Shown here piece by piece: positions 4,963 to 56,127 of a stretch of 56,127 bases of DNA. Position 1 is the stretch's first letter; each line of letters opens with the position of its first letter. This DNA comes from an uncultured Mesorhizobium sp. (GTDB taxonomy: Bacteria > Pseudomonadota > Alphaproteobacteria > Rhizobiales > Rhizobiaceae), in the NCBI GenBank assembly GCA_964371125.1, contig CAYJMY010000002.1:1-56127 (forward strand), in the 5' to 3' direction. The position numbers and the translations under genes were made by a program. The notes beneath the pieces are model-generated. The model saw only the letters and a list, made by a program, of their open reading frames with translations, was not told the DNA's origin and made no database searches.

Positions 4963-6627
<1,665 letters not shown>

Positions 6628-6879
6628 TTAGCCGTTACCATCCCGCATCGCGGATGCGATGTCAAAGCTGTGCCGGATGCGGAACCCCGGCAGCAAATCT
6701 GCAATTTTGGGAGACGAACGGTTCGCGCGAATGCGACAATCTTGGCGCAAAAATGGTAACGCGCCACAGAATTGTCAGAATCCGAGACAGCCGCGAGACT
6801 GATGCAATCGCCGCGATCGCGCCAGCGCCACGAAAGGCTCGGTGTCGGACCAGCCGCAGCCGCGCGGCGGCAGCGGCGC

Positions 6880-19974: not shown

Positions 19975-20008
19975 GCCGGATCGGGCACGAAGGAACGGTG
20001 ACGCGGCC

Positions 20009-40400: not shown

Positions 40401-43400
40401 AGGCTCGCCCGCATTCGCCTGGTTCGTCAGCATGTCCGCCGAGACCGAAGACCGGCTGCACGTCGCGGCAAGCGACAGCCGGAAGCTGCGCAGCGCAGCC
40501 CGCCGTACTTGGCTCTTCTTCGAGACCTTCGTCGGACCGGAGCACAATTGGCTGCCGCCCGACAATTTCCAGGAAACACCCGAACCGGTCGTCGCGCCGC
40601 GCACATCGCCGACCAACATCGGCGTCTACATGCTGTCGATCGTCTCGGCGCGCGATTTCGGCTGGATCAGTCTCGCCCACGCGATCGAGCGCCTGGACCA
40701 GACGCTCGCCACGATCGAGAAGATGGATCGGCACCGCGGCCATCTCTACAACTGGTACGACACGCGCTCTCTGGAGCCGCTCCATCCGCGTTACATCTCA
40801 AGCGTCGACAGCGGCAACCTCGCCGGCCACCTGATCGCGGTCTCCGCCGCCTGCAACGAGTGGGCGATGGCTCCCGCCGCCTATCTCCAGGGCGACTTCC
40901 ACGGCATCCTCGACGCCGTCGGCATCCTCGAGGAGACGCTCGCTGCCCTGCCCGACGACCGGCGCCAGATCCGCCCGCTCCGCCACCGCCTCGCCGACCG
41001 CATCGCCGGCATGCGCCGCGCCGTCGACATCGTGCGCAACGAACCCGAAACCGCCGCGATCAGAACCATCAACCTCGCCGTGCTGTCCGGCGACATCCGC
41101 AAGCTCGCCTCGGCCATCAATGCCGAGATCGGCTTACCGGCCAGCGAGGACCTGCTGCTCTGGGCCGGAAAGCTGGAGGCGACCTGCGAAGCCCATGTCA
41201 GCGACGCCCATATCGACGAGCGCGGCGTGGAATCGCTCAGGGCGAAGCTGCGCGACGTCCATCGCCGCGCCCGCCTGTTCGCCTTCCAGATGGAATTCGG
41301 CTTCCTGATACGCCGGGACCGCAAGCTGCTGTCGATCGGCTACCGCATCGACGATCACCAACTCGACGAGAGCTGCTACGACCTCCTCGCCTCCGAGGCG
41401 CGGCTGACCAGCCTGTTCGCCATCGCCAAGGGCGACGTGTCGACGGAACACTGGTTCCGGCTCGGCCGGCCGATCGTCGAGATCGGCTTCCGCGGCGCTC
41501 TGGTCTCGTGGTCGGGCTCGATGTTCGAGTACCTGATGCCGCCGCTGGTGATGAAGGAGCCGCAGGGCGGAATTCTCAACCAGACCAACATGCTGGTCAT
41601 CCGCAAGCAGATCGCCTACGGGCGCTCGAAGGGCATTCCCTGGGGCATCTCCGAGGCCGCCTACAACGCCCGCGACCGCCAGATGACCTACCAGTACACC
41701 AATTTCGGCGTGCCCGGTCTCGGCCTGAAACGCGGCCTGGCGCTGAACACGGTGGTCGCACCCTACGCCACGATGCTCGCCTCGCAGTACCTGCCGCGCC
41801 AGTCTGTCGAGAACCTCGAGCGGCTGGAGGCCATCGGCGCTCTCGGCCGCTACGGCTACCATGACGCCATCGACTTCACCCCACAGCGCGTGCCCGAAGG
41901 CCAGCATCACGCCGTCGTGCGCAACTACATGGCCCACCATCAGGGCATGTCGATCGTCGCGGTCGCCAATGTCGTCTTCGAAGGCCGCATGCGCGACCGG
42001 TTCCACAGCGACCCGGTGATCGAGGCGGCCGAACTGCTGCTCCAGGAGAAGGCGCCGCGCGACATCCCGGTCACTTTCGTCGGGTCCGAGACTGACATCG
42101 TCGCCCTGGCCGCGCCGAAAGACGACCACCCCGACAATCGCGTCGTCGACGATCCGGCGTCCGCCCCGCCCGCGGTCAACGTGCTCAGCAACGGCCGCTA
42201 CTCGGTCATGGTGTCGGCGACCGGCTCCGGCTACAGCCGCATCGATGATATCAGCGTCACGCGCTGGCAGCCCGACCTCGCGGAAGACCGTTCGGGTTCT
42301 TTCCTGTTCCTCACCGACACCGAGACCGGCAGGTGGTGGTCGGCGACGGCGGCGCCGAAGGCCGCGCCGGGTGAAGTCGCCCAGACCGTCTTTGCCGACG
42401 ACAAGGCGCATTTCTTCAAAGTAGTCGGCAACCTCCGCTCCGAGGTCGAGGTGATCGTCGCCGACGAGGGACATGGCGAAGGGCGCCGTCTCACGCTGAT
42501 CAACGATGGCCGCGTGGATCGCCATCTCGACGTCACCTCCTTCGCCGAGATCTCGCTCGCCACGGAAGCCGCCGACAGCGCCCATCCCGCCTTCTCGAAA
42601 ATGTTCGTCGAGACCGAGATCGCCCGGCAGAACAGCACGATCTACGCCTGGCGGCGCCCGCGATCGCCCGACGAGCCGGGGGTTGCGCTCGCCCATTTCG
42701 TCAGCGGGGGGGCGTCCCTGACGCGCGAGACCGAGGCGGAAACCGACCGGCGCGCATTCATCGGCAGGGGCCGCACGCTTGCCGACGCGGCGGCGTTCGA
42801 TCCCGACACGCGGCTCTCGGGCACCGCCGGCTGCGTCCTCGACCCGGTCATGGCGCTGCGCTGCCGCGTCCGCGTCCCGGCCGGAAAGAAGGTCTCGCTG
42901 ACGTTCTGGACGCTGGCAGCGCCAACGCGCAAGGAGGTCGAGGACCTCGTCGCCCGCTACGACTACCCCGACAGCTTCCAGCGCCAGGCGATGCTCGCCT
43001 GGACGCGCTCGCAGGTCCAGGTCCGCTACCTCGGCCTCAATCTCGCCGACGCGGCCGGGGTGCAGAAGCTGGCGCGATACCTGGTCTATCCCGGCAGGGC
43101 CGTGCGCGCGCCGGCCGAGGCTATCGCCGCCGGGCTCGGCCGCCAGTCGGCGCTCTGGCCGACGAGTATATCGGGCGACTATCCGATCTTCGCGGTGCGC
43201 ATCGGCGACGTGGTCGACCTGGAGATCGTCGCATCGACGCTGCGCATGCAGGAGTATTTGCGCACCCGCGGGGTCGTGGTGGACCTAGTCATCGTCAACG
43301 AACAGGCCGCCTCCTACGTTCAGGATCTGCAACAGGCGATCGAGAATCTGTGCGAAAACAGCCGCCTGCGCGGCAGGGAGCTCGGGCCGCGCCAGCACAT

Positions 43401-46005
43401 CTTCGCCGTCCGCCGGGATCTCATGGACGAGGCGACCTACCGCACACTGCTCGGCGTCGCCCGGATCGTCTTCCATACCCGCAACGGGCCGATCTCCGAC
43501 CAGATCGAGCGCGCCGAAGCCGCCGAACGAGCGGGTTTGGCGGAGCGTCCGACGTTACCCACCGGAACGGTCGGGCATCGCCGGCACGTCGACAAATCGG
43601 CCGACGGAACCGGCCTCGCCGGATGGAACGGCTATGGCGGCTTCGACCGTGACGGCCGCGACTACGTGGTGCGGCTCGCCGGCGAGCGCACCACGCCGCA
43701 TCCCTGGATCAACGTCGTCGCCAATGCCGAGTTCGGCTTCCACAGCTCCGCCGAGGGCGCCTCCTTCACCTGGAGCCGCAACAGCCGCGATTTCCAGCTG
43801 ACGCCTTGGAGCAACGACCCCGTCACCAACCGGCCCGGCGAGGCGATCTATATCCGCGACCTCGACGGCGGTGGCCTGTTCTCGCCCGTCGCCGGCGTCG
43901 CCCGCGATCCTTCGCTCGTCTACGAGGCGCGCCACGGCCAGGGTTACAGCACCTTCTCCACGCGCCGCGGCGGGCTTGCAGCAGAACTTTGCCAACTCGT
44001 GGATCCCACCGATCCGGTGAAGGTCTCGCGGCTGACGCTGCGCAACGACGGTTCGGAGGCCGTACGGCTCAGGATCTACGCCTATGCCGAGTGGGTCCTC
44101 GGCACAGGCCGCGCGCGGACTGCGCCGACGATCGTGCCCGGTCGCGACGAAGCGACGGGGGCGCTCACCGCGCGCAATCCCTACAGCCTCGAATTCGGCG
44201 AGCGCACCGCCTTCCTCGCCGCCGATGCGCCGCCCCAGTCCTTCACGGCTGACCGTACCGAATTCCTCGGTCGCGGCGGCTCCGTGGAGTGGCCGGCCGC
44301 CGCCCTGGCGGGCGCCGACCTTTCGGGCACCGTCGAAGCCGGGCGAGATCCGTGCGCGGCGATTGCCTGCGACGTCACCGTCCCGGCGGGCGGCGAAAGC
44401 CGGGTTCTGTTCCTTCTCGGCGACGCCGCCTCGGCCGAGGAGGCATCGGCGCTCGTTTCGCGGCATCGGGCGGTCGACTTCGACCGCCGGCTGGAAGCCA
44501 ACGCCCGCGCCTGGGACGATTTCCTCGGCGCGATCCAGGTCGAGACGCCGGACCCGGCGATGAACGCCATGCTGAACCGCTGGCTGCCCTACCAGAGCCT
44601 CGCCTGCCGTATCCGCGCCCGCTCGGCCTTCTACCAGGCGAGCGGCGCCTTCGGCTTCCGGGACCAGCTCCAGGACGCTCTGGCGCTGACGCTCCACGAT
44701 CCGTCGCTGGCGCGGGCGCGCATCCTCGACGCGGCCGCGAGGCAGTTCCCGGAAGGCGACGTCCAGCACTGGTGGCTGCCGCGGACCGGCGCCGGCGTGC
44801 GCACGGCAATCTCCGACGACGTCGTCTGGCTGGCCTTCTGCGCCCACGACTACATCCGCTCGACCGGCGACCGGGCGATTCTCGACGAACAGGTGCCTTT
44901 CATCGAAGGCCCCGCCCTCGCGCCCGGCGAGCACGACGCCTACTTCGTGCCCGACATGTCGGCCAAGTCCGATAGCCTCTACGAGCATTGCGCACGCGCG
45001 CTCGATCTCGCGATATCGCGCACCGGGCCAAATGGCCTGCCGCTGATCCTCGGCGGCGACTGGAACGACGGCATGAACCGGGTCGGCATCGGCGGCCAGG
45101 GTGAAAGTGTGTGGCTCGGCTGGTTCCTGCTGCGCACCCTGGCGGATTTCCTCCCCCACGCCGAGGCGCGCGGCGACGAGGCGAGGACGCGCCGCTGGCG
45201 CAAACGCGAACGCAACCTGAAGGTCGCGGTCGAGGCGAGCGCCTGGGACGGCCAATGGTACCGGCGCGCGACCTACGACGACGGCACGCCGCTCGGCTCG
45301 CGTTCGTCGGACGAGTGCCAGATCGATTCCCTGCCGCAGTCGTGGAGCGTGCTGTCCGACCACGGCGACCCGGCGCGCTCGCGCACGGCCCTCGATTCGG
45401 CGATCGCCGAACTGGTCGCCCCGGATCTGCGGATCGTCCGGCTGTTCACGCCGCCCTTCTCGACCGGCGAGCGCGATCCGGGCTACATCCGCGCCTATCC
45501 CGCCGGCGTACGCGAGAACGGCGGTCAGTATACCCATGCCGCAACCTGGCTGGTCATTGCGCTCGCCCGCACGGGGCGCGCCGACGAGGCCTACCGGCTG
45601 TTCGACATGCTCAATCCGGTCACCCACGCGACCGACGAGAAGGCAGCGGGAATCTATCGCGTCGAGCCCTACGTCGTTGCCGCGGATGTCTATTCGATCG
45701 GCGACAAGGCCGGACGTGGCGGCTGGACCTGGTATACGGGATCGGCCGGCTGGCTTTTCCGCGCCGGTGTCGAAGGCATCCTCGGCATTCGCCGCGATGG
45801 CGGCCGCCTGGAAGTCACCCCTGCGCTTCCGTCCGCCTGGCCGGGCTATTCGGCGACACTGCGTCTCGACGGCAGGACCGTACGCTTGATTGTGCGCCGC
45901 GGGAGAGGCGGGGCCGGTGGAATCACCGTCGACGGACGCCATGTCGATGCGATCCTGATCGACGCGCTGCAGGCCGATAGCGAAATCATGGTCGAGACGG
46001 CATGA
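37492..46005 (+). CDS. ndvB: cyclic beta-1,2-glucan synthase (Cgs/NdvB/ChvB)
   Basis: 2837 aa. WLLDNHY, GWERKRGKL, TLDADT, SHDLLEG, QHRWARGDWQ (GT84), WSGSMFEYLMP, and a C-terminal GH94 phosphorylase region (GFRDQLQD, GDWNDGMN, ENGGQYTH). Confidence 0.97.
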   Translation: MNVRTDPESLRLSPPPLPAKADAPIRSTFLHDEMLRRLGENLARGELKRIEGLEAFDISSRIREDNEKILAVYRATNEAQLRGETITPAAQWLLDNHYMVEEAVYQIRRDLPKRFYRQLPTIEIEKGVRVPRALALAWLYVAHTDSAVSATGLEAIIEGFQSVEPLRIGEIWALPPLLRFVLVENLRRLALRVDRARQMRRIANSLADRLLSATPWEGGPTALLSGYSQHAQDNTFATQLLHRLRDGSLSAGAALAWLERELEASGSDAEQIIIREHQTLAAGNVTTGNIIRGLRVANDLDWTVWFERVSRVDRLFRERTDFARLDFQSRDQYRTAVEDLARRSGKNEYDVALRVIEMAEAGASESAAAADGPDVGTLLVGARRREVEKDLGYRSPFGTRLYRSFRKAGWAGIAVPALALAGLLLAALASALAAAEVPDWGIVVLLVLFTLPGFEGMLAIFNASVMLLLKPTSLIGYEFKDGVPPEARTLVVVPSLISSRDEIEESVRNLEVHFLANMHGDLHFALLSDWPDSQDEQSAGDLELLEYAHACIAGLNAVYPRAEAPRFHLLHRRRLYNETQGCWMGWERKRGKLHELDLLLRGDSDTTFMPSDTPLPQGVVYVMTLDADTRMTRDAVARLVGKLCHPLNRPVLDPLTRRVVSGYGILQPRVTPSLTTGDEASFFQRICSVHRGMDPYVFAVSDLYQDVFGEGSFTGKGLYHVDAMEAALKDRIREDTVLSHDLLEGAYARAALTTDVELVEDYPTRYAVDASRQHRWARGDWQLLGYILDPASGVPALSRWKMIDNLRRSLTPIFWTAASIAGWTLLPFSLAAQWQVLLILSLFVAPTFDLVRSLFPDSRETTPRARLTAFFRDIAQGSAQVALRLILMGHTAWMMADAIARTLHRLLVSRRNLLEWRTASQAQKHGANTLASYYGMMWGALPIAAVGLALPVATDSTGAFVAFIFALFWAGSPAFAWFVSMSAETEDRLHVAASDSRKLRSAARRTWLFFETFVGPEHNWLPPDNFQETPEPVVAPRTSPTNIGVYMLSIVSARDFGWISLAHAIERLDQTLATIEKMDRHRGHLYNWYDTRSLEPLHPRYISSVDSGNLAGHLIAVSAACNEWAMAPAAYLQGDFHGILDAVGILEETLAALPDDRRQIRPLRHRLADRIAGMRRAVDIVRNEPETAAIRTINLAVLSGDIRKLASAINAEIGLPASEDLLLWAGKLEATCEAHVSDAHIDERGVESLRAKLRDVHRRARLFAFQMEFGFLIRRDRKLLSIGYRIDDHQLDESCYDLLASEARLTSLFAIAKGDVSTEHWFRLGRPIVEIGFRGALVSWSGSMFEYLMPPLVMKEPQGGILNQTNMLVIRKQIAYGRSKGIPWGISEAAYNARDRQMTYQYTNFGVPGLGLKRGLALNTVVAPYATMLASQYLPRQSVENLERLEAIGALGRYGYHDAIDFTPQRVPEGQHHAVVRNYMAHHQGMSIVAVANVVFEGRMRDRFHSDPVIEAAELLLQEKAPRDIPVTFVGSETDIVALAAPKDDHPDNRVVDDPASAPPAVNVLSNGRYSVMVSATGSGYSRIDDISVTRWQPDLAEDRSGSFLFLTDTETGRWWSATAAPKAAPGEVAQTVFADDKAHFFKVVGNLRSEVEVIVADEGHGEGRRLTLINDGRVDRHLDVTSFAEISLATEAADSAHPAFSKMFVETEIARQNSTIYAWRRPRSPDEPGVALAHFVSGGASLTRETEAETDRRAFIGRGRTLADAAAFDPDTRLSGTAGCVLDPVMALRCRVRVPAGKKVSLTFWTLAAPTRKEVEDLVARYDYPDSFQRQAMLAWTRSQVQVRYLGLNLADAAGVQKLARYLVYPGRAVRAPAEAIAAGLGRQSALWPTSISGDYPIFAVRIGDVVDLEIVASTLRMQEYLRTRGVVVDLVIVNEQAASYVQDLQQAIENLCENSRLRGRELGPRQHIFAVRRDLMDEATYRTLLGVARIVFHTRNGPISDQIERAEAAERAGLAERPTLPTGTVGHRRHVDKSADGTGLAGWNGYGGFDRDGRDYVVRLAGERTTPHPWINVVANAEFGFHSSAEGASFTWSRNSRDFQLTPWSNDPVTNRPGEAIYIRDLDGGGLFSPVAGVARDPSLVYEARHGQGYSTFSTRRGGLAAELCQLVDPTDPVKVSRLTLRNDGSEAVRLRIYAYAEWVLGTGRARTAPTIVPGRDEATGALTARNPYSLEFGERTAFLAADAPPQSFTADRTEFLGRGGSVEWPAAALAGADLSGTVEAGRDPCAAIACDVTVPAGGESRVLFLLGDAASAEEASALVSRHRAVDFDRRLEANARAWDDFLGAIQVETPDPAMNAMLNRWLPYQSLACRIRARSAFYQASGAFGFRDQLQDALALTLHDPSLARARILDAAARQFPEGDVQHWWLPRTGAGVRTAISDDVVWLAFCAHDYIRSTGDRAILDEQVPFIEGPALAPGEHDAYFVPDMSAKSDSLYEHCARALDLAISRTGPNGLPLILGGDWNDGMNRVGIGGQGESVWLGWFLLRTLADFLPHAEARGDEARTRRWRKRERNLKVAVEASAWDGQWYRRATYDDGTPLGSRSSDECQIDSLPQSWSVLSDHGDPARSRTALDSAIAELVAPDLRIVRLFTPPFSTGERDPGYIRAYPAGVRENGGQYTHAATWLVIALARTGRADEAYRLFDMLNPVTHATDEKAAGIYRVEPYVVAADVYSIGDKAGRGGWTWYTGSAGWLFRAGVEGILGIRRDGGRLEVTPALPSAWPGYSATLRLDGRTVRLIVRRGRGGAGGITVDGRHVDAILIDALQADSEIMVETA

Positions 46006-46203
46006 GAAACCATGGACGCGGTCACAAGATCGCCATTTTCTCCTAGATTTCAGTCTCTTATTCGATCACGCGACATTTCCGCCCGATAACGACATTTGTC
46101 CTGCTTTCCGGAACGGAACGCAATCCGCGGGCATTGTCCCCCGATGCGCAAACTCGTATTCAGCGATGGTGCGGCGCACAAACCGAAGTCACAAGGTAAC
46201 GAC

Positions 46204-47976
46204 GTGTCTCTGTTGCAGATCTACTGGAGAGCGCTGAGCTACCTCGCCGCGGAGAGGCGTAAAGTCGCCGTCATCTGCGCCGCCAATGTCGGCCTCGCCG
46301 CCGTGGCCATCGCCGAGCCGGTGCTGTTCGGCCGCATCATCGACGCGATCTCCGAAAAGCGCGACGTCGTGCCGACGCTGGCGCTCTGGGCCGGCATCGG
46401 CGCGTTCAACATCGTCGCTTATGTCCTGATCGCGCGCGGCGCGGATCGACTCGCCCACGGTCGGCGTGCCGAGGTCCTCGCCGAATCGTTCGAGAAGGTC
46501 ATCACCATGCCGCTGGCGTGGCACCACCAACGCGGCACCTCGAACAGCCTTCACACGCTGCTGCGCGCGGTGGAAAGCCTTTTCGGCCTCTGGCTGGAGT
46601 TCATGCGCCAGCACCTTACGACCGCGGTTGCGCTTTTCCTGCTCGTGCCAACAGCCTTGACGCTCGACGTCCGCATGTCGCTCGTACTGGTCGCGCTCGG
46701 CGCCGTCTACCTGTGGATCGGTCGCGTCGTCATGCGCAAGACGAAGGACGGCCAGGCGTCGGTGGAGGCCCACTATCACCGGGTGTTCTCCCATGTGAGC
46801 GACTCGGTCAGCAATGTTTCCGTGCTGCAGAGCTACAACCGCATCGCCGAGGAGAAGCGCGCCCTCGAGGCCTATACGCGCGAGCTCCTCGCTGCGCAGT
46901 TCCCGGTGCTCGACTGGTGGGCGCTGGCAGCCGCCCTGCACCGCCTGGCTTCGACCATTTCGATGATGGTGGTGCTGCTGATTGGAGCGCTGCTGGTGCT
47001 CCGCGGCGAACTCCGGATCGGCGACATCGTCGCCTTCACCGGCTTTGCAACCCTGCTGATCAGCCGGCTCGACCAGATCTCGGCCTTCGCCAACCAGGTC
47101 TTCGAGGCACGCGCGAAGCTCGTCGACTTCTACGCCCTCGAGAACGCGGTGGCCGACCGCCTGGAGCCGGACGGGGCGCGCGACCTCGGCGGGGTCACCG
47201 GATACGTCCGCTTCGAGAACGTCGGCTTCTCCTTCCACAACGCCGGCCGCGGCGTCGAGGACGTCTCATTCGAAGTAGGCGCCGGACAGACGGTCGCGAT
47301 CGTCGGTCCCACGGGCGCAGGCAAGACGACATTGGTCAACCTACTCCAGCGCGTCTACGACCCGCAGCAGGGACGGATCCTCATCGACGGCATCGACACC
47401 AGGACGGTGACGCGCCGATCGCTGCGTCATTCGATCGCGACCGTCTTCCAGGACGCCGGGCTGTTCAACCGCACCATCGGCGACAACATCCGCATCGGCC
47501 GCGCCGACGCCAGCCAGGACGACATCCATGCCGCTGCCGATGCCGCAGCGGCGCTCGATTTCATCCTCGCCCGGGATACGGGCTACGAAACGCTGGTCGG
47601 GGAACGCGGGGCGCAACTTTCCGGCGGAGAGCGCCAGCGCATCGCGATCGCACGCGCGATCCTGAAGGACGCGCCCATCCTCGTCCTTGACGAGGCGACC
47701 AGCGCGCTCGATGTCGAAACCGAAAGCCGCGTGAAGGATGCGATCGAGCGCCTGCGCGCCAACCGCACGACCTTCATCATCGCCCACCGCCTGACCACCG
47801 TCAGGAGCGCCGACCTGATCGTTTTCCTCGACCAGGGACGCGTCGTCGAGAGCGGCGGTTTCGCCGAGCTGAGCGCCAGCAACGGCCGCTTCGCCGCGCT
47901 GCTCAGGGCCGGCGGCCTGCTCGACGACGACGAGGTCCGCAGGACCGCAAGAGTTGCAGTGCGCGAAGTCGCCTGA
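46204..47976 (+). CDS. ndvA: cyclic beta-1,2-glucan ABC exporter (NdvA/ChvA/Cgt)
   Basis: GTG start MSLLQIYWRAL; ADRLAHGRR, WLEFMRQHL, QFPVLDWWALA, GPTGAGKTT and LSGGERQR. Directly after ndvB. Confidence 0.95.
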   Translation: MSLLQIYWRALSYLAAERRKVAVICAANVGLAAVAIAEPVLFGRIIDAISEKRDVVPTLALWAGIGAFNIVAYVLIARGADRLAHGRRAEVLAESFEKVITMPLAWHHQRGTSNSLHTLLRAVESLFGLWLEFMRQHLTTAVALFLLVPTALTLDVRMSLVLVALGAVYLWIGRVVMRKTKDGQASVEAHYHRVFSHVSDSVSNVSVLQSYNRIAEEKRALEAYTRELLAAQFPVLDWWALAAALHRLASTISMMVVLLIGALLVLRGELRIGDIVAFTGFATLLISRLDQISAFANQVFEARAKLVDFYALENAVADRLEPDGARDLGGVTGYVRFENVGFSFHNAGRGVEDVSFEVGAGQTVAIVGPTGAGKTTLVNLLQRVYDPQQGRILIDGIDTRTVTRRSLRHSIATVFQDAGLFNRTIGDNIRIGRADASQDDIHAAADAAAALDFILARDTGYETLVGERGAQLSGGERQRIAIARAILKDAPILVLDEATSALDVETESRVKDAIERLRANRTTFIIAHRLTTVRSADLIVFLDQGRVVESGGFAELSASNGRFAALLRAGGLLDDDEVRRTARVAVREVA

Positions 47977-48222
47977 CCGCCCGAAGAGCTTCCACGCCGT
48001 GCTAGCGGCCTGAATCCGCCGGTCCAAGGCCGGCCCGGAATTCACATAATTTTTCAGCATGTTACGAGACAGCCCCGGAGCACGGGAAAAAGTGTCGCAG
48101 GCGCAACGCAGGGAACGAATTCGCCCGTCCGCCCTTCTCCTTCCACAATTCGCCGGCTAGGCAATCTCCACGCCGTGTGACAGTAGGATGACAATTTGCC
48201 GGCGCAGTGAGAGGGTGTCTTC

Positions 48223-50154
48223 TTGGCGACTTTCGCCGACCATATCGGACCGACGCCGGACGCTTCCGAGACGCGGAACTCCGCAAGCGCGCTGAAGACG
48301 GCAATGCTCCGCGCCTTGCTCTCGCTCGGCGGCACGGCGCTCGCCGCTACCCTGCTCGCCTTCGCCATCGAGGCCCTGGCGCGCGGTTCCGGCCGCGCGG
48401 CATTCGATTTCTTCGCCGGGCTGCAACGCCCGGCATGGACGACGGCCTTCATCCTGGCAGTGGCCATGGTGGCCGTGGACGCCGCGCTCGGCCGCCGGCA
48501 CAGATCCTTCCTCCTCCTCGCGCCGCCCCTGCTCGCGCTGGCATGGATCGGCAGCCAGAAGGCCGTCTATCTCGGTGACCCGCTCTACCCGACGGATTTC
48601 CTCTACTATCGCCAGATCGTCGAATTGATGCCTCTTCTGGCGCGCGACCGCCCGTTGACGGTCGTCGCCATGGTCGCCGCGACGCTCGGCAGTCTGGCGC
48701 TGCTCGTCTGCGGCTGGCGGCTCGCCGCCCGGCATTGCGGACGTCTCGGCCTCGGCGCGCGGATGGCGCGGTTCGCCGTCGCGCTGCCGGTGCTCGCCTT
48801 CTTCGTCTCGATCATGGACTACCGCGCCTTCTCGTGGACCCGAGACCGGCTCGACGTCATCCCGAGGATGTGGGACCAGAAGGACAACTACGCATCGAAC
48901 GGCTTCGTCCTGGCCTTCGCGCTCAACCTGCCGATGGCGACGGTCGCTGCGCCGTCCGGCTACTCGGCCGAGGCGATCGAGCGCATCGCGGCGCAGAGCG
49001 GGACGGTGCCGGCCGCGGCCGGAGAACGCCCAGACGTCGTCATCGTCATGAGCGAGTCGTTCTGGGATCCGACACGGCTGCCGGGCGTGGCGATCACGCC
49101 CGATCCGATCCCGACGGCGCGGTCGCTTCGTTCGGGCGAAGTCTTCTCGCCGGAGTTCGGCGGCATGACCGCCAATGTCGAGTTCGAGGCGCTGACCGGC
49201 TTCTCCAACGCCTTCCTGCCCTATGGCAGCATTCCCTACCAGCAGTACGTCCGCACCAGCATCCCTTCCCTCGCCAGCTTCTTCCGCGACCAGGGCTACG
49301 CCACCACCGCGCTCCACCCGTTCCAGGGATGGTTCTGGAACCGGTCGGTCGTCTACGACGCCTTGGGTTTCGAGCGCTTCCTTTCGGAGGAGAACCTGCC
49401 GGCGCTGGAGAAGCGCGGACCGCTCGCCTCGGACGCCGCGATGACCGAGGAAATCATCCGCCGCGCCGACGCCGAGGAGAAGCCGGTCTTCCTCTTCGCC
49501 GTCAGCCTGCAGGGCCACGGGCCGTACGAGCCGAACCGCTACAAGGACGCAAGGCATGCGGTTTCCGCGCCGGGTCTCAAGGACAGGGCGCGGGATTCGG
49601 TCCTCAGCTTCTCGGAAGGCGCGGCAGACGCGGACAAGGGGCTGGCGAGGCTCGTCGAATGGGCGAAGGGACGCAGCCGCCCGACCGTGATCGCCTTCTT
49701 CGGCGACCACCTGCCGCCGCTCGGCGAAGCCTATGTCCAGTCGGGCTATATGAAGGAGCCGGTCGCCTCGCGCCGCGCACCGCTTGCGCAGATGAAAGCC
49801 GAGCACGAAACGCCGCTGGTGATCTGGTCGAACCGCGGCGGCCCGCGAACCGACGTCGGCACGATCAGCCCGGCCTTCCTGCCGCTCGAAGTCCTCGAAG
49901 CCGCCGGCATGGAGCATCCCTACTACACGGGCTTCCTCCGGCAGGTGCGCGACAGGTTCCCGGTCGTCGACCGCCACGTTCTCGTCGACGGCGTCGGCGA
50001 AGCACAGGCCGATTGGGCCAGGGCCGGCGCGGTCGACCCGATCGTGCAAGACTTCCGGCTGCTGCAGTACGACGTGATGTTCGGCGACCGGCACGCTATC
50101 GGCCGCTTCTTCCCCGAAGACGAAGGCAGCCCGGACGTTGCGCTGGTCCGCTGA
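48223..50154 (+). CDS. LTA synthase / alkaline phosphatase-superfamily membrane protein, candidate glucan phosphoglycerol transferase
   Basis: About 5 N-terminal TM helices; MSESF, FGGMTANVEFE (catalytic Thr position), HPF, HGPY and GDH. TTG start is uncertain. Confidence 0.85.
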   Translation: MATFADHIGPTPDASETRNSASALKTAMLRALLSLGGTALAATLLAFAIEALARGSGRAAFDFFAGLQRPAWTTAFILAVAMVAVDAALGRRHRSFLLLAPPLLALAWIGSQKAVYLGDPLYPTDFLYYRQIVELMPLLARDRPLTVVAMVAATLGSLALLVCGWRLAARHCGRLGLGARMARFAVALPVLAFFVSIMDYRAFSWTRDRLDVIPRMWDQKDNYASNGFVLAFALNLPMATVAAPSGYSAEAIERIAAQSGTVPAAAGERPDVVIVMSESFWDPTRLPGVAITPDPIPTARSLRSGEVFSPEFGGMTANVEFEALTGFSNAFLPYGSIPYQQYVRTSIPSLASFFRDQGYATTALHPFQGWFWNRSVVYDALGFERFLSEENLPALEKRGPLASDAAMTEEIIRRADAEEKPVFLFAVSLQGHGPYEPNRYKDARHAVSAPGLKDRARDSVLSFSEGAADADKGLARLVEWAKGRSRPTVIAFFGDHLPPLGEAYVQSGYMKEPVASRRAPLAQMKAEHETPLVIWSNRGGPRTDVGTISPAFLPLEVLEAAGMEHPYYTGFLRQVRDRFPVVDRHVLVDGVGEAQADWARAGAVDPIVQDFRLLQYDVMFGDRHAIGRFFPEDEGSPDVALVR

Positions 50155-50166
50155 CGAGGCTTCCGG

Positions 50167-51198
50167 CTACTGCCGGTGCGCCCCGCCGAAGCCGGTGAGG
50201 AACGACGTCAGGTTGACCGAAAGCTCCTCGCTGAGATAGCCGCCTTCCTGGACGATGACGGTGGGCAGGTGCAGCCTGGCGATCGCTTCAGCGATGCGGG
50301 CAAAGCCCGGCGTCGTGACGCTGAGGCCGCCGAACGGATCGCTCTCGTGCGCGTCGAGGCCAAGCGCGATCACCAGCGCTTCCGGCGCGAAGGCGCGGAT
50401 GCGCCGCAATGCCGTGCCCAATGCCTCGAGGAACTGCGCGTCGCCGCTCTTCCGCGGCAGCGGCAGGTTGAAGTTATAGCCGAGGCCCGGCCCCTCGCCG
50501 CGCTCGTCGGCATGACCCCAGAAGAACGGATAGAAGCGCACCGGATCGGCGTGGATCGACACCGTCAGCACGTCCGGACGGGCATAGAAGATGCCCTGCG
50601 TGCCGTTGCCGTGATGCAGGTCGACGTCGAGGATGGCGACGCGCGCTGCAGTCCGGCGCAGGATCTGCGCGGCGACGGCGGTATTGTTGACGAAGCAGAA
50701 GCCGCCGGCGACGTCGGCGAAGGCGTGGTGTCCCGGCGGGCGGCAGAGCGCGTAGGCAGCAGGCGCCCCGGCGGCGACTGCGCCCGCCGCCTCGACCGCG
50801 CTCATCGCGCTCCAGTAGACGCTCTCCCAGGTCTCGGCCGAGATCGGGCAGCCGGTGTCGGCCATGTGGTAGCCGGCCTGGCCGACGGCCGACGCCGGAT
50901 AGGCGCCGTCGCGGGCCAGCGGGTGGATGTTGGGGATCACCTCTTCCGACGCGCCTTCGATGCGCCGCCAGCGCTGGTAGATGTGCTGGAGGAAGTCGAG
51001 ATATTCGGGCGTGTGCACCGCCGCGATCGGGCCGAGGCCGTGGTCGCGCGGCCGCTCGATGGCCAGGCCCGCCGCGCGGGCGCCTTCGAGCAGGCGTTCG
51101 GCACGCGCCGGCTGCTCCGGATTGGGCTGCGGCGCGCCGCTCGACAGGAACATCTTCGGGTCGTGCAGCTTCTGTTCGGGAGCGAAAAAGGCTTTCAC
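50167..51198 (-). CDS. histone deacetylase family protein (acetylpolyamine amidohydrolase-like)
   Basis: GTG start overlaps the GNAT stop. PEQPAR, RPPGHHA, GFCFVNN, LDVDLHHGNGTQ, LGLDAH and QEGGY. Confidence 0.92.
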   Translation of the reverse strand: MKAFFAPEQKLHDPKMFLSSGAPQPNPEQPARAERLLEGARAAGLAIERPRDHGLGPIAAVHTPEYLDFLQHIYQRWRRIEGASEEVIPNIHPLARDGAYPASAVGQAGYHMADTGCPISAETWESVYWSAMSAVEAAGAVAAGAPAAYALCRPPGHHAFADVAGGFCFVNNTAVAAQILRRTAARVAILDVDLHHGNGTQGIFYARPDVLTVSIHADPVRFYPFFWGHADERGEGPGLGYNFNLPLPRKSGDAQFLEALGTALRRIRAFAPEALVIALGLDAHESDPFGGLSVTTPGFARIAEAIARLHLPTVIVQEGGYLSEELSVNLTSFLTGFGGAHRQ

Positions 51199-51728
51199 GG
51201 CTGGTCTCCAGGAACTCGTGCGCCTTCTGACGGCCCCGCCTCGGCGAGGCGCTGGAACGCGTCGCCATAGGCCGCGTAGATGAGGTCGTCGTCGACGTGC
51301 TTCAGGCCGAGGCGCTGGTAGAAACGCCCGGCGTTCGGATTGCCGATGTCGACGGCAAGCCGCATATAGACGCCGCCACGCGCGTACGTGATTGCCGCAA
51401 CCCGGCGCAGCAGCCTTTCGCCGACGCGGGCGCCGCGAAACCGCTCGTCGACGAAGAGGTCCTGCACGTAGACGCCCGGCCGGCCGATGAAGGTGGAGAA
51501 GGAACGGAAGTAGATGCACACGCCCGCCGGCCTGCCGCCGATCTCGGCGATCAGGCATTCGAACATCGGATCGGCGCCGAAACCGTAGCGGCGTATGTCC
51601 TCGGCAGTACTCGTCACCTTTTCCGGGATGCCTACATGGTGCCCGAGCCGGCGTACCGCCTGGACGATGGTCTCGGCATCCGCTTCCGTGGCCGGACGGA
51701 TGACGAGGTCGTCGGCGGGCCGCTCCAT
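51195..51728 (-). CDS. GNAT family N-acetyltransferase (SSAT / diamine acetyltransferase-like)
   Basis: IRPATEAD, FSTFIGRPGVYVQDLFVDERFRGARVG and NPNAGRFYQRLG. Confidence 0.9.
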   Translation of the reverse strand: MERPADDLVIRPATEADAETIVQAVRRLGHHVGIPEKVTSTAEDIRRYGFGADPMFECLIAEIGGRPAGVCIYFRSFSTFIGRPGVYVQDLFVDERFRGARVGERLLRRVAAITYARGGVYMRLAVDIGNPNAGRFYQRLGLKHVDDDLIYAAYGDAFQRLAEAGPSEGARVPGDQP

Positions 51729-51735
51729 GGTCGAG

Positions 51736-53124
51736 CTAGCCCGCGACCGGCAGGTCGCGTTCGCGCGCCAGCACTTCCAGCGCGTCGCCGAGGATGGCGA
51801 CCATCTCGCCGACCTGCTCGCGGGTGATGATCAGCGGCGGCGCCAGGATGATGTTGTCGCCTTCGATGCCGTCGCCGCGGATGCGTCGCGAGTAGACGAT
51901 CAAGCCGCGCTCGTAGCAGAGGTCGAGCAGGCGCTGGTTGGTCGCCTTGGCCTTGGGCAGCGGCTGGAAGGTCACGGCGTCGGCGACGAGGTCGGCGCCG
52001 ATCAGGAGACCCTTGCCGCGCACGCCGGCGATGAAGGGGAAGCGCCGCGACAGGCCTTCGAGTTCGGCCTTTAGCAGTTCGCCCATTGCCGCGGCGTTCT
52101 CCACCGCGCCAAGCCGGTCGATCTCCTTCAGCACGGCAAGGCCGGCGGCCGCCGACAGTGGGTTGCCGGCATAGGTGTAGCCGTGCTGGAAGCCGCCCGA
52201 ATCGAGCACCGGTTTCACCAGCCGCCGCGATGCGGCCATGGCGCCGAGCGGCGAATAGCCCGAACCGATACCCTTTGACAGGGTGATGATGTCGGGCCGG
52301 CAATTCCAGTGGTCGCCTCCGAGGAAGCGCCCGGTGCGGCCGATGCCGGTCATCACCTCGTCGTGGATCAGGAGGACGCCGTAGCGGTCGCAGATCTCGC
52401 GGATGCGCGGGAAGTAACTGTCGGGTGGCACCAGGGCCGCGGTCGCCGCGCCGCCAATCGGCTCCATGATGAAGGCGAGAACGCTTTCGGGTCCCTCGGC
52501 GAGGATCTTCTCCTCCAGCATGTCGGCGTAGCGCAGGCCGCGCTGCTCCATCGTCAAATTGTCGCGGTCGCGATAGGCCGTGGGCGCGGGCACGGTGGGC
52601 ATCTCGCGGATCTGCGGCGCGAAGGTCTCCGTCAGAGCGAGGTCGCCGGTTACCGAAAGGGCGCCGATCGTGCCGCCGTGATAGGACGGGAAGCGGCCGA
52701 TGATCTTCCAGCGCTTCGCCTGGCCGGTGACGACCGCCCACTGGCGGGCGAGCTTGACGGCGGATTCGACCGCCTCCGAACCGCCGGATACGAAGAAAAT
52801 CCGATCGAGGTCGCCCGGCATCTTCGACGCGACGAGCGTCGCCAGTTCCTCGGCCGGTTCGTTCTCGAAATGCAGTCGGTAGGCGAAGGTGACGCGGTCG
52901 AGCTGCCGCTTCATCGCATCGATGACGTTGCGGTTGCCGTGGCCGACATTGACCACCATGGCGCCGCTCGACCCGTCGATGAAGCGCCTGCCGTCCTTGG
53001 TCCAGAGGTAGATCCCCTCGGCGCGGTCGACGAGCGGCCGGCGCAGCCGGGTGAGATAGAACAGGTTGGACGGCCGGTGGTCTTCGGCACCGGCGGCGGC
53101 GCCTCTCTGCTGGATGGTCATCAT
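51736..53124 (-). CDS. class III PLP-dependent aminotransferase
   Basis: RAEGIYLW, SGGSEAVE, SYHG, MEPIGG, DEVMTG, LSKG (PLP Lys) and HGYTY. ATGA overlap with the upstream gene. Confidence 0.93.
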   Translation of the reverse strand: MMTIQQRGAAAGAEDHRPSNLFYLTRLRRPLVDRAEGIYLWTKDGRRFIDGSSGAMVVNVGHGNRNVIDAMKRQLDRVTFAYRLHFENEPAEELATLVASKMPGDLDRIFFVSGGSEAVESAVKLARQWAVVTGQAKRWKIIGRFPSYHGGTIGALSVTGDLALTETFAPQIREMPTVPAPTAYRDRDNLTMEQRGLRYADMLEEKILAEGPESVLAFIMEPIGGAATAALVPPDSYFPRIREICDRYGVLLIHDEVMTGIGRTGRFLGGDHWNCRPDIITLSKGIGSGYSPLGAMAASRRLVKPVLDSGGFQHGYTYAGNPLSAAAGLAVLKEIDRLGAVENAAAMGELLKAELEGLSRRFPFIAGVRGKGLLIGADLVADAVTFQPLPKAKATNQRLLDLCYERGLIVYSRRIRGDGIEGDNIILAPPLIITREQVGEMVAILGDALEVLARERDLPVAG

Positions 53125-54779
53125 TCCCCCCTCGCCACGGCGCCGAGATAGCGGCCGAGCACGTTGTTCGTTACCGTTTCCACCATCGGATCACGGCGCA
53201 GCAGGCCGGCGACCCACTCGCAGCTTCCGGCGTGGAACACCTCGCCCTTGCCGCGCGGGAAATTGACGATCATGCCGTTGCCGCGCTTCACCTTTTCGAG
53301 GTTCTCGTCCGACGGCGTGCCATAGAGCGTCTCCGCGGTGAAGCGCCCGTCCTCATCGCCGAAGAACTGCTCCTCGGGCGGAATGTGCGGGGCGTCCTCG
53401 ACCTGGGCGGCGAGCCCAAGCGCGAGCACGGTGATGCCCTCGGGCGGCGATCCTTCGCCGGTCGGCTCCGGCAGGCCGCGCCGCATCGTGTAGTCGAGGC
53501 CGTCGACTTCGTAGCCGAAGACGTGGCTCTCGCCGCCGAGTACGTCGCCATAGGACAGGCCGGTGCCGGCGAAGGCCCAGTGTTCGGGGCGATAGACGGG
53601 GAAGCCGCGCGTGCCGCGCGGCGCGCAGCCGCCCCATCCGGCATAGACGCCGCTGGTGGCGTTGAGCCCGAAGGTCCGCGCTCCCGGCCGCCCGATCTCC
53701 GGAGCCTCCCACGAATTGGTCGCCCGGGTGACGTCTCCGGAGCGGTAGACCGGGTCCTCGGCGCGGGCGCGGTACTTGTAGCAAAGCTGCCGGCGCCCCT
53801 CATCCTCCAGCCTCGTCTGCCACATGAAGTTGCCGGCGAAGCGCGCCGCGTGGCCGCCGCGCTCGACATAGTTGTCGACCGCGTCGCGCATCTCCCAGGT
53901 CCAGTACTCGTCATGGCCGACGAATGCCGCGCAGTCATAGTCGTCGAGCAGACCGGGGACGAAATGCAGGTCGTGCTGGCTGGCGAGGTCGACGTCGTAG
54001 CCTTCGAGTTCGGCCCAACGGAAGAAGTGGCTATCGTAGCTCGCCCAGCCGGCGGAGGCGTACTTCTTCGAATGGCCGGTGGCGTAGGCCCATTCCATGT
54101 GCGGATAGCGCGGTATGGCCAGCGGCGGCAGCGCCACCTCGAGCGGCACGCGCGGCGCCTCGCGCGGCAGGACGACGAAGCCGCGGCACCATGGCCTTTG
54201 CGTCGAGACGATCGGCGAATACTGGTCGCGGTTCGGCCCGGTGATGCCCTGGTAGTGGTTCGATCCGCCCCAGGTGTTGTAGGCGAGCCAGGTGCCCGTC
54301 GCCGCGACCTGGAGGATGCGCCCCGGCTTGCGCCCGGGCGCAGGCCGCACGATGAACAGGTGATGGCAGAGGATCGGCGCCCCGTCGCGGCCCTCGGCGG
54401 TCAGGGTGACGCGGTAGGCGCCCGAGCGCCAGTCGTCGGGCACGCGGAACTCGAACGCCGGCTGCCAGCCGCATCCCTCGACCGAGCACTGGTCGGGCGT
54501 CTCCTGCCAGCGTGCGGCTATATCGGACCGCGACATGACCGGGGTTTCGCCGGCGCCGTCGCGCAGGATGTCGAGGCTGAAGACGGGCGCGCTCGAACTG
54601 ACGAACAGCGTCACCGTCTCGCCCGGCGCATAGGAGAAGCGGTCGGAATAGCACCAGATCTCGCCGCGCTCGCCGTCCATGCCGGGATATTCGTAGTAGT
54701 GGCCGCGGACCGCCTCGCGGCGCTGCTCGTGGGTGAGACCGAAGTCGGGGAATTCGTGTGGAAGGCCTGGCGCGGACAT
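53121..54779 (-). CDS. N,N-dimethylformamidase beta-subunit-like protein
   Basis: YSDRFSYAPGETV, VPDDWRSGAY, TWLAYNTWGG, STQRP, GHDEYWTWEMRD, FAGNF, GYEVD and GEVFHAGSCEW. Confidence 0.82.
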   Translation of the reverse strand: MSAPGLPHEFPDFGLTHEQRREAVRGHYYEYPGMDGERGEIWCYSDRFSYAPGETVTLFVSSSAPVFSLDILRDGAGETPVMSRSDIAARWQETPDQCSVEGCGWQPAFEFRVPDDWRSGAYRVTLTAEGRDGAPILCHHLFIVRPAPGRKPGRILQVAATGTWLAYNTWGGSNHYQGITGPNRDQYSPIVSTQRPWCRGFVVLPREAPRVPLEVALPPLAIPRYPHMEWAYATGHSKKYASAGWASYDSHFFRWAELEGYDVDLASQHDLHFVPGLLDDYDCAAFVGHDEYWTWEMRDAVDNYVERGGHAARFAGNFMWQTRLEDEGRRQLCYKYRARAEDPVYRSGDVTRATNSWEAPEIGRPGARTFGLNATSGVYAGWGGCAPRGTRGFPVYRPEHWAFAGTGLSYGDVLGGESHVFGYEVDGLDYTMRRGLPEPTGEGSPPEGITVLALGLAAQVEDAPHIPPEEQFFGDEDGRFTAETLYGTPSDENLEKVKRGNGMIVNFPRGKGEVFHAGSCEWVAGLLRRDPMVETVTNNVLGRYLGAVARGE

Positions 54780-54871: not shown

Positions 54872-55456
54872 TCAGCGCGGGTACAGCGTCAGGATGGCGA
54901 TGGTGACGGCTTGGCAGGGGCGCGCCGCGTGGAGGACCGCCCTTTCGCCGCCGACGACAACCACGGCGTCGCGGCGCCCGAGCGCAACCGGTTCACCGTC
55001 GCGTTCCAGGGTGAGGCCGTCTCCATCGGCGAGGACAACAGTGACACCGCCGGCGGAAACAAGGTCCAGTTCTCCCGACACTTCGAGAAGTTCCAGCTTA
55101 CTTTGGCAGACGCCGCGGCGCGTCATGACGTTGAGGTCGGTGATCGGTCCGGCCTCGAGCCGCGCTGATGCCGGGACGTCGGCCGGGAATGCCAATACTG
55201 CGTGCGGCCGCGCTAGGTGGACCGACCCTTGTCCCTCCACCGCGAGGTGCAGCCCCTTGCCGTCGAGCAACATGAGCGTGCGGTCGATGCCGGGAAACAG
55301 CGAGAACGGCCCGTCGCTCTCCACCCGTGCCATCGATATGCGCCAGGCGAAGTCATCCAGCCCCGCCCCGGGCGGAAAGACGGCGATCTCGGTCGTCAAT
55401 CCGCCGCCGTTCTTCCACGGCATGCGGCGATGTTCGGCAGCGCGGAGGAGGTGCAT
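54872..55456 (-). CDS. hutD: HutD/Ves family protein
   Basis: MPWKNGGGLTTEI, WRISMA, GPFSLFPGIDR and DLNVMTRR; directly downstream of hutU. Confidence 0.93.
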   Translation of the reverse strand: MHLLRAAEHRRMPWKNGGGLTTEIAVFPPGAGLDDFAWRISMARVESDGPFSLFPGIDRTLMLLDGKGLHLAVEGQGSVHLARPHAVLAFPADVPASARLEAGPITDLNVMTRRGVCQSKLELLEVSGELDLVSAGGVTVVLADGDGLTLERDGEPVALGRRDAVVVVGGERAVLHAARPCQAVTIAILTLYPR

Positions 55457-55469
55457 GTGGCCAGCCTCC

Positions 55470-56127
55470 TCACCCCAGTATCCCCGGCAGGTTCAGCCCG
55501 TGCTCGCGGGCGCAGTCGAGGGCGATGTCGTAGCCGGCGTCGGCATGGCGCATGACGCCCGTCGCCGGGTCGTTCCACAGGACGCGCTCGACGCGCTTCT
55601 GCGCTTCCGGCGTGCCGTCGCAGACCACCACCATGCCTGAATGCTGCGAGAAGCCCATGCCGACGCCGCCGCCATGATGCAGCGACACCCAAGTCGCGCC
55701 CGAGGCGCAGTTGAGCAGCGCGTTGAGCAGCGGCCAGTCGGAGACGGCGTCGGAGCCGTCCTTCATCGCCTCGGTCTCGCGGTTCGGCGAGGCGACCGAG
55801 CCGGAATCGAGATGGTCGCGGCCGATCACGATCGGCGCCTTCAGTTCACCCTTCGCCACCATCTCGTTGAAGGCGAGGCCCGCCTTGTGGCGGTCGCCGA
55901 GCCCGATCCAGCAGATGCGCGCCGGCAGTCCCTGGAAGGCGATGCGCTCCTGCGCCATGTCGAGCCAGCGGTGCAGGTGCTCGTTCTCCGGGAAGAGCTC
56001 CTTCATCTTCGCGTCGGTCCTGCGGATGTCTTCCGGGTCGCCGGAAAGCGCCGCCCAGCGGAACGGGCCGATGCCGCGGCAGAACAGCGGGCGGATATAG
56101 GCCGGCACGAAGCCCGGGAAGTCGAAG
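55470..56127 (-). CDS. hutU: urocanate hydratase, 3' portion (5' end lies beyond the window)
   Basis: [55 protein letters not shown] and [14 protein letters not shown]. Confidence 0.97.

Follow-up and report, generated by a model that had tools for sequence, protein, structure and literature searches.

The locus and its conservation

The window examined here, a stretch of 56,127 nucleotides, is one whole contig of an uncultured Mesorhizobium sp. whose parent genome comprises 5.05 Mb and is 91.6% complete. At positions 50167–54779, it carries four open reading frames on the minus strand. In the order of transcription, these encode a dimethylformamidase (DMFase)-fold amidohydrolase (53121..54779; 552 aa; Pfam DMFA2_C, PF20254, E 2e-71), a class III pyridoxal phosphate-dependent transaminase (51736..53124; 462 aa; Aminotran_3, PF00202, E 3e-91), an SSAT/thialysine-type acetyltransferase of the GNAT family (51195..51728; 177 aa; Acetyltransf_1, PF00583, E 1e-11) and a zinc-dependent deacetylase of the HDAC/acetylpolyamine amidohydrolase (APAH) type (50167..51198; 343 aa, 36.8 kDa, GTG start; Hist_deacetyl, PF00850, E 3e-75). 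A first-pass annotation had described four co-oriented, tightly coupled genes. The Pfam families agree with that description, and the ATGA overlap at 53121–53124, the 7-base gap and the GTGA overlap at 51195–51198 were all re-found exactly. The genome contains one close copy of each of the four genes.

To assess conservation, the DMFase-like protein was scanned against species genomes; 586 relatives were confirmed among the matches listed and the best 80 were kept. The corresponding loci are mostly from Mesorhizobium, Ensifer and other Hyphomicrobiales, such that the counts are skewed to near kin, and contig ends truncate some of the loci. Using identity cut-offs that we set at 55% for the transaminase, 36% for the GNAT, 60% for the HDAC-type enzyme and 55% for BKACE (beta-keto acid cleavage enzyme), 63 of the 80 loci had all four genes together in an unchanged order. 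The grouping is therefore not due to chance. A BKACE gene (PF05853) was present in 58 of the 80 loci, including 47 of the 63 four-gene loci, where it is sited between the transaminase and GNAT genes; the remaining 16 four-gene loci resemble the window in having none. Other members among the 80 loci were a LysR regulator (36), a binding protein (29) and a thioesterase (26). The cluster importer is nearest to binders of basic and polar amino acids.

In broader samples, the transaminase had a match at E 1e-120 or better in 19 of 400 genomes drawn from the phylum, all from the same class and 18 at ≥58% identity. Similarly, the DMFase-like protein matched 13 of 400 class-drawn genomes at E 1e-100; four of these matches were at 68–72% identity, and those four were located in the cluster. 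The four window genes are a shortened core copy of a conserved alphaproteobacterial cluster, for which we propose a catabolic function. We consider the operon real and conserved and its catabolic chemistry well supported; the substrate is probably beta-lysine.

Some relatives carry extra genes within the operon, namely L024 (11750–12736), with genes of similar size in L028 and L065, and L020, L025, L061 and L085. The insert is either an O-methyltransferase gene following the DMFase-like gene or a 2-thiouracil desulfurase-family gene preceding the GNAT gene.

The upstream hut genes

Upstream of the four genes lie hutD (54872–55456, minus strand) and the 3' part of a truncated hutU (55470–56126, minus strand), neither of which was mentioned in the first-pass annotation. 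One explanation is that the cluster extends the histidine-utilisation operon to histamine, methylhistidines or carnosine. HutU and hutD are on the same strand as the cluster, with 92 bases between hutD and the DMFase-like gene; a terminator-like site between them was sought and none was found; and the same arrangement occurs in two further genomes of the genus, G001 and G002. In these two (L139 and L141), the four genes come after a complete hut run, with no gap left for a regulator. The cluster in this genus may therefore be read from the hut promoter; a promoter scan of the window locus found no site. By contrast, hutU adjoins the cluster in only one of the 80 loci, and at other sites the cluster comes with a LysR regulator and an importer of its own. 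On this conservation pattern, we rejected a histidine-pathway extension, which we consider highly improbable, and regard the upstream hut genes as a local accident. Histamine and methylhistidines, put forward in the first-pass annotation as candidate substrates, are thus unsupported, the hut link being confined to close relatives.

Beta-keto acid cleavage and exchangeable parts

In general, BKACEs cleave beta-keto acids with acetyl-CoA, as described in PMC4922564. According to Table S1 of that study, whose machine-read columns may be shifted, BKACEs of several family groups cleaved 6-acetamido-beta-ketohexanoate. A near relative of the cluster enzyme, BKACE15, was placed on uncharged beta-keto acids in PMC11961710.

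Several loci carry substitutes for cluster components. L131 and the S. medicae SU277 plasmid carry 3-oxoacid CoA-transferase subunits A and B and a thiolase instead of the BKACE, and an ArgE-type deacylase instead of the HDAC-type enzyme. The CoA-transferase and ArgE variant also occurs in L132 and L168, while L128 and L069 combine BKACE with ArgE. The enzyme in the transaminase slot of SU277 is only 27% identical to that of the window and belongs to a beta-transaminase family (2YKU, E 1.6e-129; 4AO9, E 4.6e-122). Five genomes that lack the window type of transaminase carry a third transaminase type. Because a BKACE, or elsewhere a CoA-transferase and thiolase, cleaves a beta-keto acid, the amine that is transaminated should be a beta-amine. 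The interchangeable parts thus point to a route in which a beta-amine is lost, the beta-keto acid so formed is cleaved, and an N-acetyl group is put on and taken off. The first-pass annotation had proposed that an amide is hydrolysed and the product acetyl-protected, transaminated and deprotected. The core of this idea fits; the beta-keto acid cleavage step, which comes between transamination and deprotection, characterises the pathway and is encoded in 47 of the 63 four-gene loci, had been missed.

In L168, the cluster of which carries the CoA-transferase and ArgE, the transaminase gene (8892–10367) is split by a stop codon and the DMFase-like gene lies elsewhere in the genome.

The transaminase and its link to Bacillus

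The window transaminase has Lys284 in the motif LSKG; its top structural match was 3I4J and its best NCBIfam model was PRK06917. Among 14 control genomes, this model was detected in B. subtilis. A search of plasmid records with the transaminase yielded 208 records at E 1e-80, of which the 60 best and 60 spread over the remainder were viewed. The record of Bacillus velezensis AP3 contains an annotated run encoding a transaminase, CoA-transferase subunits A and B, an ArgE-type peptidase, AblB and AblA, the last two being beta-lysine N-acetyltransferase and lysine 2,3-aminomutase, respectively. The first four genes of this run are also present in Brevibacillus, with ablB two genes away; in B. mycoides, the third Bacillus hit, the transaminase homologue is in an unrelated context. 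The window transaminase is 39% identical to the one in the ablB-ablA operon and is also the top match to that protein in this genome (E 1.5e-83; next match, 3e-48). Further, the CoA-transferases and ArgE of L131 are 48–49% and 35% identical, respectively, to their Bacillus counterparts.

PMC6522883 lists yodT and kamA of B. subtilis as SigE genes five locus numbers apart, gives 3I4J as the structure nearest to YodT, and calls YodT uncharacterised and possibly biotin-related. PMC9049628 attributes N-epsilon-acetyl-beta-lysine synthesis to yodP-kamA. Considered together, the Bacillus link and the part swaps suggest that the window enzyme is likely an N6-acetyl-beta-lysine transaminase. A 2015 review of transaminases is said to have already guessed this activity for YodT.

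A further connection to beta-lysine was found on a plasmid of Rhizobium sp. CB3171 (L178). Two genes for KamA-like radical SAM proteins (5691–6848 and 14538–15812; 33–35% identical to AblA) lie 10–20 kb from transaminase, GNAT and HDAC genes and a short BKACE remnant, in a locus that has no DMFase-like gene. This proximity may be due to chance because transposase genes lie between or near these genes.

The acetyltransferase and the deacetylase

The best solved relative of the window GNAT was 12JC, named a thialysine acetyltransferase (E 6e-22), and that of the deacetylase was 3MEN (E 5e-109). The deacetylase motifs RPPGHH, DVDLHHGNG and QEGGY are intact. Pfam and these nearest relatives agree with the earlier identification of an SSAT-like N-acetyltransferase and an acetylpolyamine amidohydrolase-like deacetylase. 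In the context of the conserved cluster, the GNAT is likely a beta-lysine N6-acetyltransferase and its partner a likely deacetylase of 4-acetamidobutyryl-CoA or 4-acetamidobutyrate.

The same similarities would also fit ordinary acetylation and deacetylation of polyamines or diamines coupled to an omega-transaminase, and some distant copies of the cluster have a polyamine-type importer. Nevertheless, this explanation does not account for the BKACE, or the CoA-transferase and thiolase, which need a beta-keto acid. Moreover, contig C39 already carries a separate APAH-like gene (43% identity) next to an importer of the polyamine type. We therefore consider polyamine metabolism very unlikely.

Three loci that have no DMFase-like gene, L133, L134 and L166, carry a polyamine-type importer and an FAD oxidoreductase, together with a RidA-family gene in L134. 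This variant may serve the opposite enantiomer.

The DMFase-like protein

A structural model of the DMFase-like protein, built from 28 sequences (mean pLDDT 65), matched 8I59, 8HUY and 8I5A as well as 6LVB and 6LVD, with Z scores of 23.9–24.9 and root-mean-square deviations of 3.2–3.4 over 395–413 aligned residues. The next unrelated structure had a Z score of 14. These matches include Paracoccus dimethylformamidase (6LVB) and N-acetyl-(R)-beta-phenylalanine acylase (8HUY, 8I5A). The two enzymes tied in fold and also in a profile search (E about 4e-16 for both). The window protein shares their fold, corresponding to domains I and III of the DMFase family, but is only 23–24% identical to them. 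It is about 220 residues shorter than DMFase (552 versus 775 aa) and has no counterpart of the DMFase middle domain, the alignment skipping approximately residues 41–324. No small-subunit gene adjoins the DMFase-like gene, whose neighbours are hutD and the transaminase gene; the search for such a gene was limited to these neighbours.

In a HMMER alignment, the DMFase residues Tyr399, His519, Glu521 and Asn547, reported in PMC7686228, correspond to Tyr167, His289, Glu291 and Asn317 of the window protein. From a reading of the motif only, Tyr176 is a candidate counterpart of DMFase Tyr440. All five residues of the window protein were invariant in 120 of 120 homologues. The protein is thus predicted to have kept the two-Tyr, one-Glu iron site together with the catalytic His.

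Several observations bear on the role of this protein. The DMFase-like gene is missing from a Shinella locus that has the importer of the cluster and its transaminase, BKACE, GNAT and HDAC genes, and none of five core-bearing genomes had any match to the DMFase-like protein. The protein is therefore dispensable for the core. A role at entry is favoured because several arrangements place the gene immediately behind the importer and because most loci that have it also encode another deacetylase. Overall, the protein is likely an accessory N-acyl-beta-amino-acid hydrolase. Provided that the substrate is beta-lysine, we give about an even chance to the enzyme acting first, by deacylating the beta-amine or by hydrolysing a beta-lysyl amide. 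Action at the exit, on 4-acetamidobutyrate or pyrrolidinone, is possible but less likely.

Two other roles were considered. Five genomes with DMFase-like, BKACE and HDAC genes had no transaminase orthologue, which would be consistent with the DMFase-like enzyme substituting for the transaminase. This idea was set aside as unnecessary: all five carry another type of transaminase, in the locus in one case and elsewhere in four, as well as a GNAT match of 45–57%. The standing of the protein as the exit deacetylase was lowered by G128, which has no HDAC match and encodes an ArgE in the locus. In the same check, G498 and G732 had an ArgE of 58–59% identity elsewhere, and G823 had neither HDAC nor ArgE at the thresholds used.

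The importance assigned to the DMFase-like enzyme differs if the cluster is analogous to ectoine catabolism, which involves EutD/DoeA, EutE/DoeB and DoeD, with DoeC. That pathway likewise uses a hydrolase, a deacetylase and a class III transaminase on an acetylated diamino acid. By analogy, an imported cyclic amidine or N-acyl beta-amino acid would enter mainly through the DMFase-like enzyme, with the GNAT and HDAC being secondary. Consistent with such a route, a 68–69% DMFase-like homologue on two Rhizobium plasmids is followed by an EutD/DoeA-like hydrolase (399–411 bits; cut-off, 613). In addition, four genomes keep the importer, DMFase-like enzyme, transaminase and BKACE without GNAT or HDAC orthologues, and a creatininase-family gene occupies the hydrolase slot of L131 and L132. 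By contrast, the Shinella locus retains the importer and the core without the DMFase-like gene, five core genomes have no DMFase-like match, and the EutD-like neighbours sit in a different, RpiR-associated context. An ectoine-like route is thus unlikely. Ectoine catabolism includes neither beta-keto acid cleavage nor a protective GNAT, and the window hydrolase and deacetylase are from other families.

In the CoA-transferase variant, the transporter operon includes the creatininase/MftE-family amidohydrolase genes (L131, 12410–13201; L132, 6098–6886). Of the five core-bearing genomes with no DMFase-like match, two have a creatininase-family gene in this position. The second context of the 68–69% homologues, seen in L105 and L106 on the Rhizobium plasmids and in L062 of Leeia, comprises an RpiR regulator, other transaminases, the EutD-like hydrolase, an aldehyde dehydrogenase and a CoA-transferase, plus a thiolase in Leeia. 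This context may represent a sister pathway acting on a different beta-amino acid. More distant homologues (43–57%) occur in unrelated gene contexts. DMFase-like homologues in L100, L103 and L202 (51–54%) are paired with a gene for an 815–826-aa protein behind a regulator gene, the partner being annotated as a CoA-transferase in the two plasmid records. A search of the ESM Atlas with homologue P0042 returned DMFA2_C clusters only.

A proposed route for beta-lysine degradation

From the observed gene identities, order, conservation and part swaps, we infer every substrate in the following scheme, in which the cluster probably degrades beta-lysine (3,6-diaminohexanoate) or N6-acetyl-beta-lysine aerobically to 4-aminobutyrate (GABA). 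The GNAT would acetylate the terminal amine, preventing ring closure of the later 3-keto acid. The class III transaminase would then convert the C3 amine to a ketone, yielding 6-acetamido-3-oxohexanoate, which a BKACE would cleave to 4-acetamidobutyryl-CoA. In the window strain, this activity would likely come from a paralogue or from a CoA-transferase and thiolase encoded elsewhere. Finally, the HDAC-type enzyme and a thioesterase would generate GABA, acetate and CoA. The DMFase-fold enzyme, an accessory that most likely acts before the other enzymes, would allow conjugated forms of beta-lysine to enter.

The aerobic degradation of L-beta-lysine by Pseudomonas B4, reportedly described by Barker and co-workers (EC 2.6.1.65, EC 3.5.1.51), is said to involve, in order, an N6-acetyltransferase, a transaminase, beta-keto acid cleavage, a deacetylase and a thioesterase. 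The conserved cluster would encode the same enzyme set in the same implied order, a comparison of enzyme roles rather than of sequences. The subunits of the B4 deacetylase are reportedly ∼36.5 kDa, versus 36.8 kDa here, although all such enzymes are of this size. Two differences are that the DMFase-fold hydrolase has no known counterpart in the B4 route and that the window copy has no cleavage enzyme. As far as the chemistry is concerned, the earlier statement that no pathway with this gene set had been described probably does not hold, given the match to the B4 route.

A literature search that covered few subscription journals listed no paper on this cluster or on the Pseudomonas B4 pathway, and none assigning these genes to that route. 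Section 14 of the NetSyn survey, in the text available, names several BKACE contexts, none of which is this cluster, although its supplements may list it. The sections of PMC3149608 and PMC7241714 that were examined contain nothing on an aerobic beta-lysine pathway.

The second system for comparison is the Bacillus yodT...yodP-kamA (ablB-ablA) operon, which combines a homologous transaminase with a beta-lysine acetyltransferase and contains CoA-transferase and ArgE-type genes matching those of L131, L132 and SU277. It differs in that Bacillus makes its own beta-lysine via KamA and in that its GNAT and deacetylase families are not those of the window. Neither AblA nor AblB had a match at E 1e-15 in the window genome, at its stated completeness.

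Several findings weigh against a beta-lysine route in the window strain. The genome contains no cluster-type BKACE, its three paralogues (57–61%) being encoded elsewhere and falling on a separate branch. Nine of ten other genomes with BKACE-less loci likewise have only paralogues of 59–63%; one has a 68% match. The cluster LysR and binding protein had no match above 35% in the window genome. The window copy may thus be partly decayed, although the three BKACEs, two CoA-transferase pairs and thiolases encoded elsewhere could supply the cleavage. With respect to the Bacillus link, the window GNAT had no BLAST match to AblB, and the window transaminase scored 437.6 bits with PRK06917, below the curated cut-off of 535; the Bacillus enzyme scored 766.8. 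In a FastTree phylogeny of 95 sequences, calculated without bootstrapping and including 66 of 150 representatives picked by length from the first 79, the cluster transaminases formed their own clade (support 100) and the Bacillus enzymes another. With no sister relation and only one broad subfamily in common, orthology of the window transaminase and YodT is not supported. Finally, G498, G732, G631 and G822 have the importer, DMFase-like, transaminase and BKACE genes, and no HDAC or GNAT orthologue was found in them, the HDAC paralogues being only 48–50% identical and the GNAT matches at most 32–34%. A fifth genome, G636, has a 72% HDAC elsewhere and no GNAT match. Acetyl protection would therefore not always be needed. 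This gene content fits uptake of a ready-acetylated osmolyte, but also a different substrate.

The same chemistry could indeed act on another beta-amino acid with a distal amine, such as beta-ornithine, beta-homolysine, a hydroxy- or methyl-beta-lysine, or a product of beta-arginine. The genomic arguments all fix the chemistry and none the chain length, BKACEs are promiscuous, and the Bacillus transaminase may not be an orthologue. On the other hand, beta-lysine is the one named metabolite to which any link exists, through ablA and ablB of Bacillus and the KamA-like genes near one rhizobial copy. Moreover, on chemical grounds, ring closure that calls for protection would be expected for C6–C7 chains. 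We consider another substrate rather unlikely and retain beta-lysine as the probable one.

If this assignment is correct, the cluster provides candidate genes for N6-acetyl-beta-lysine transaminase and 4-acetamidobutyryl-CoA deacetylase. To our knowledge, these two activities were purified decades ago without sequences. An aerobic sink would also be named for beta-lysine and for N6-acetyl-beta-lysine, the latter being a widespread osmolyte of methanogens according to PMC9049628. In addition, a function would be suggested for the uncharacterised YodT operon of Bacillus, and the dimethylformamidase family, founded on an enzyme for a synthetic solvent, would be given a candidate class of natural substrates.

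More speculatively, DMFase-fold iron enzymes may naturally strip the acyl group from N3-acylated beta-lysine, allowing soil and marine alphaproteobacteria to use capped forms of beta-lysine as nutrients, for example what is left of acetyl-inactivated streptothricins or a rearranged archaeal osmolyte. One modular pathway would then extend from rhizobia to the sporulation genes of Bacillus, rebuilt from no fewer than three families of transaminases, two of cleavage enzymes and two of deacetylases. We regard this extension as tentative.

Other features of the window

Downstream of the cluster, a convergent gene for a sulfatase-domain membrane protein ends 12 bases from the deacetylase end. It belongs to a plus-strand region (37492–50154) that also encodes a 2837-aa protein resembling, by eye, a cyclic beta-1,2-glucan synthase, and the glucan exporter ChvA (TIGR01192). 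The sulfatase-domain protein may decorate the glucan. Further upstream on the plus strand (14530–22105), genes for proteins of 1814 and 698 aa resemble, by eye only, an alpha-2-macroglobulin and penicillin-binding protein 1C pair.

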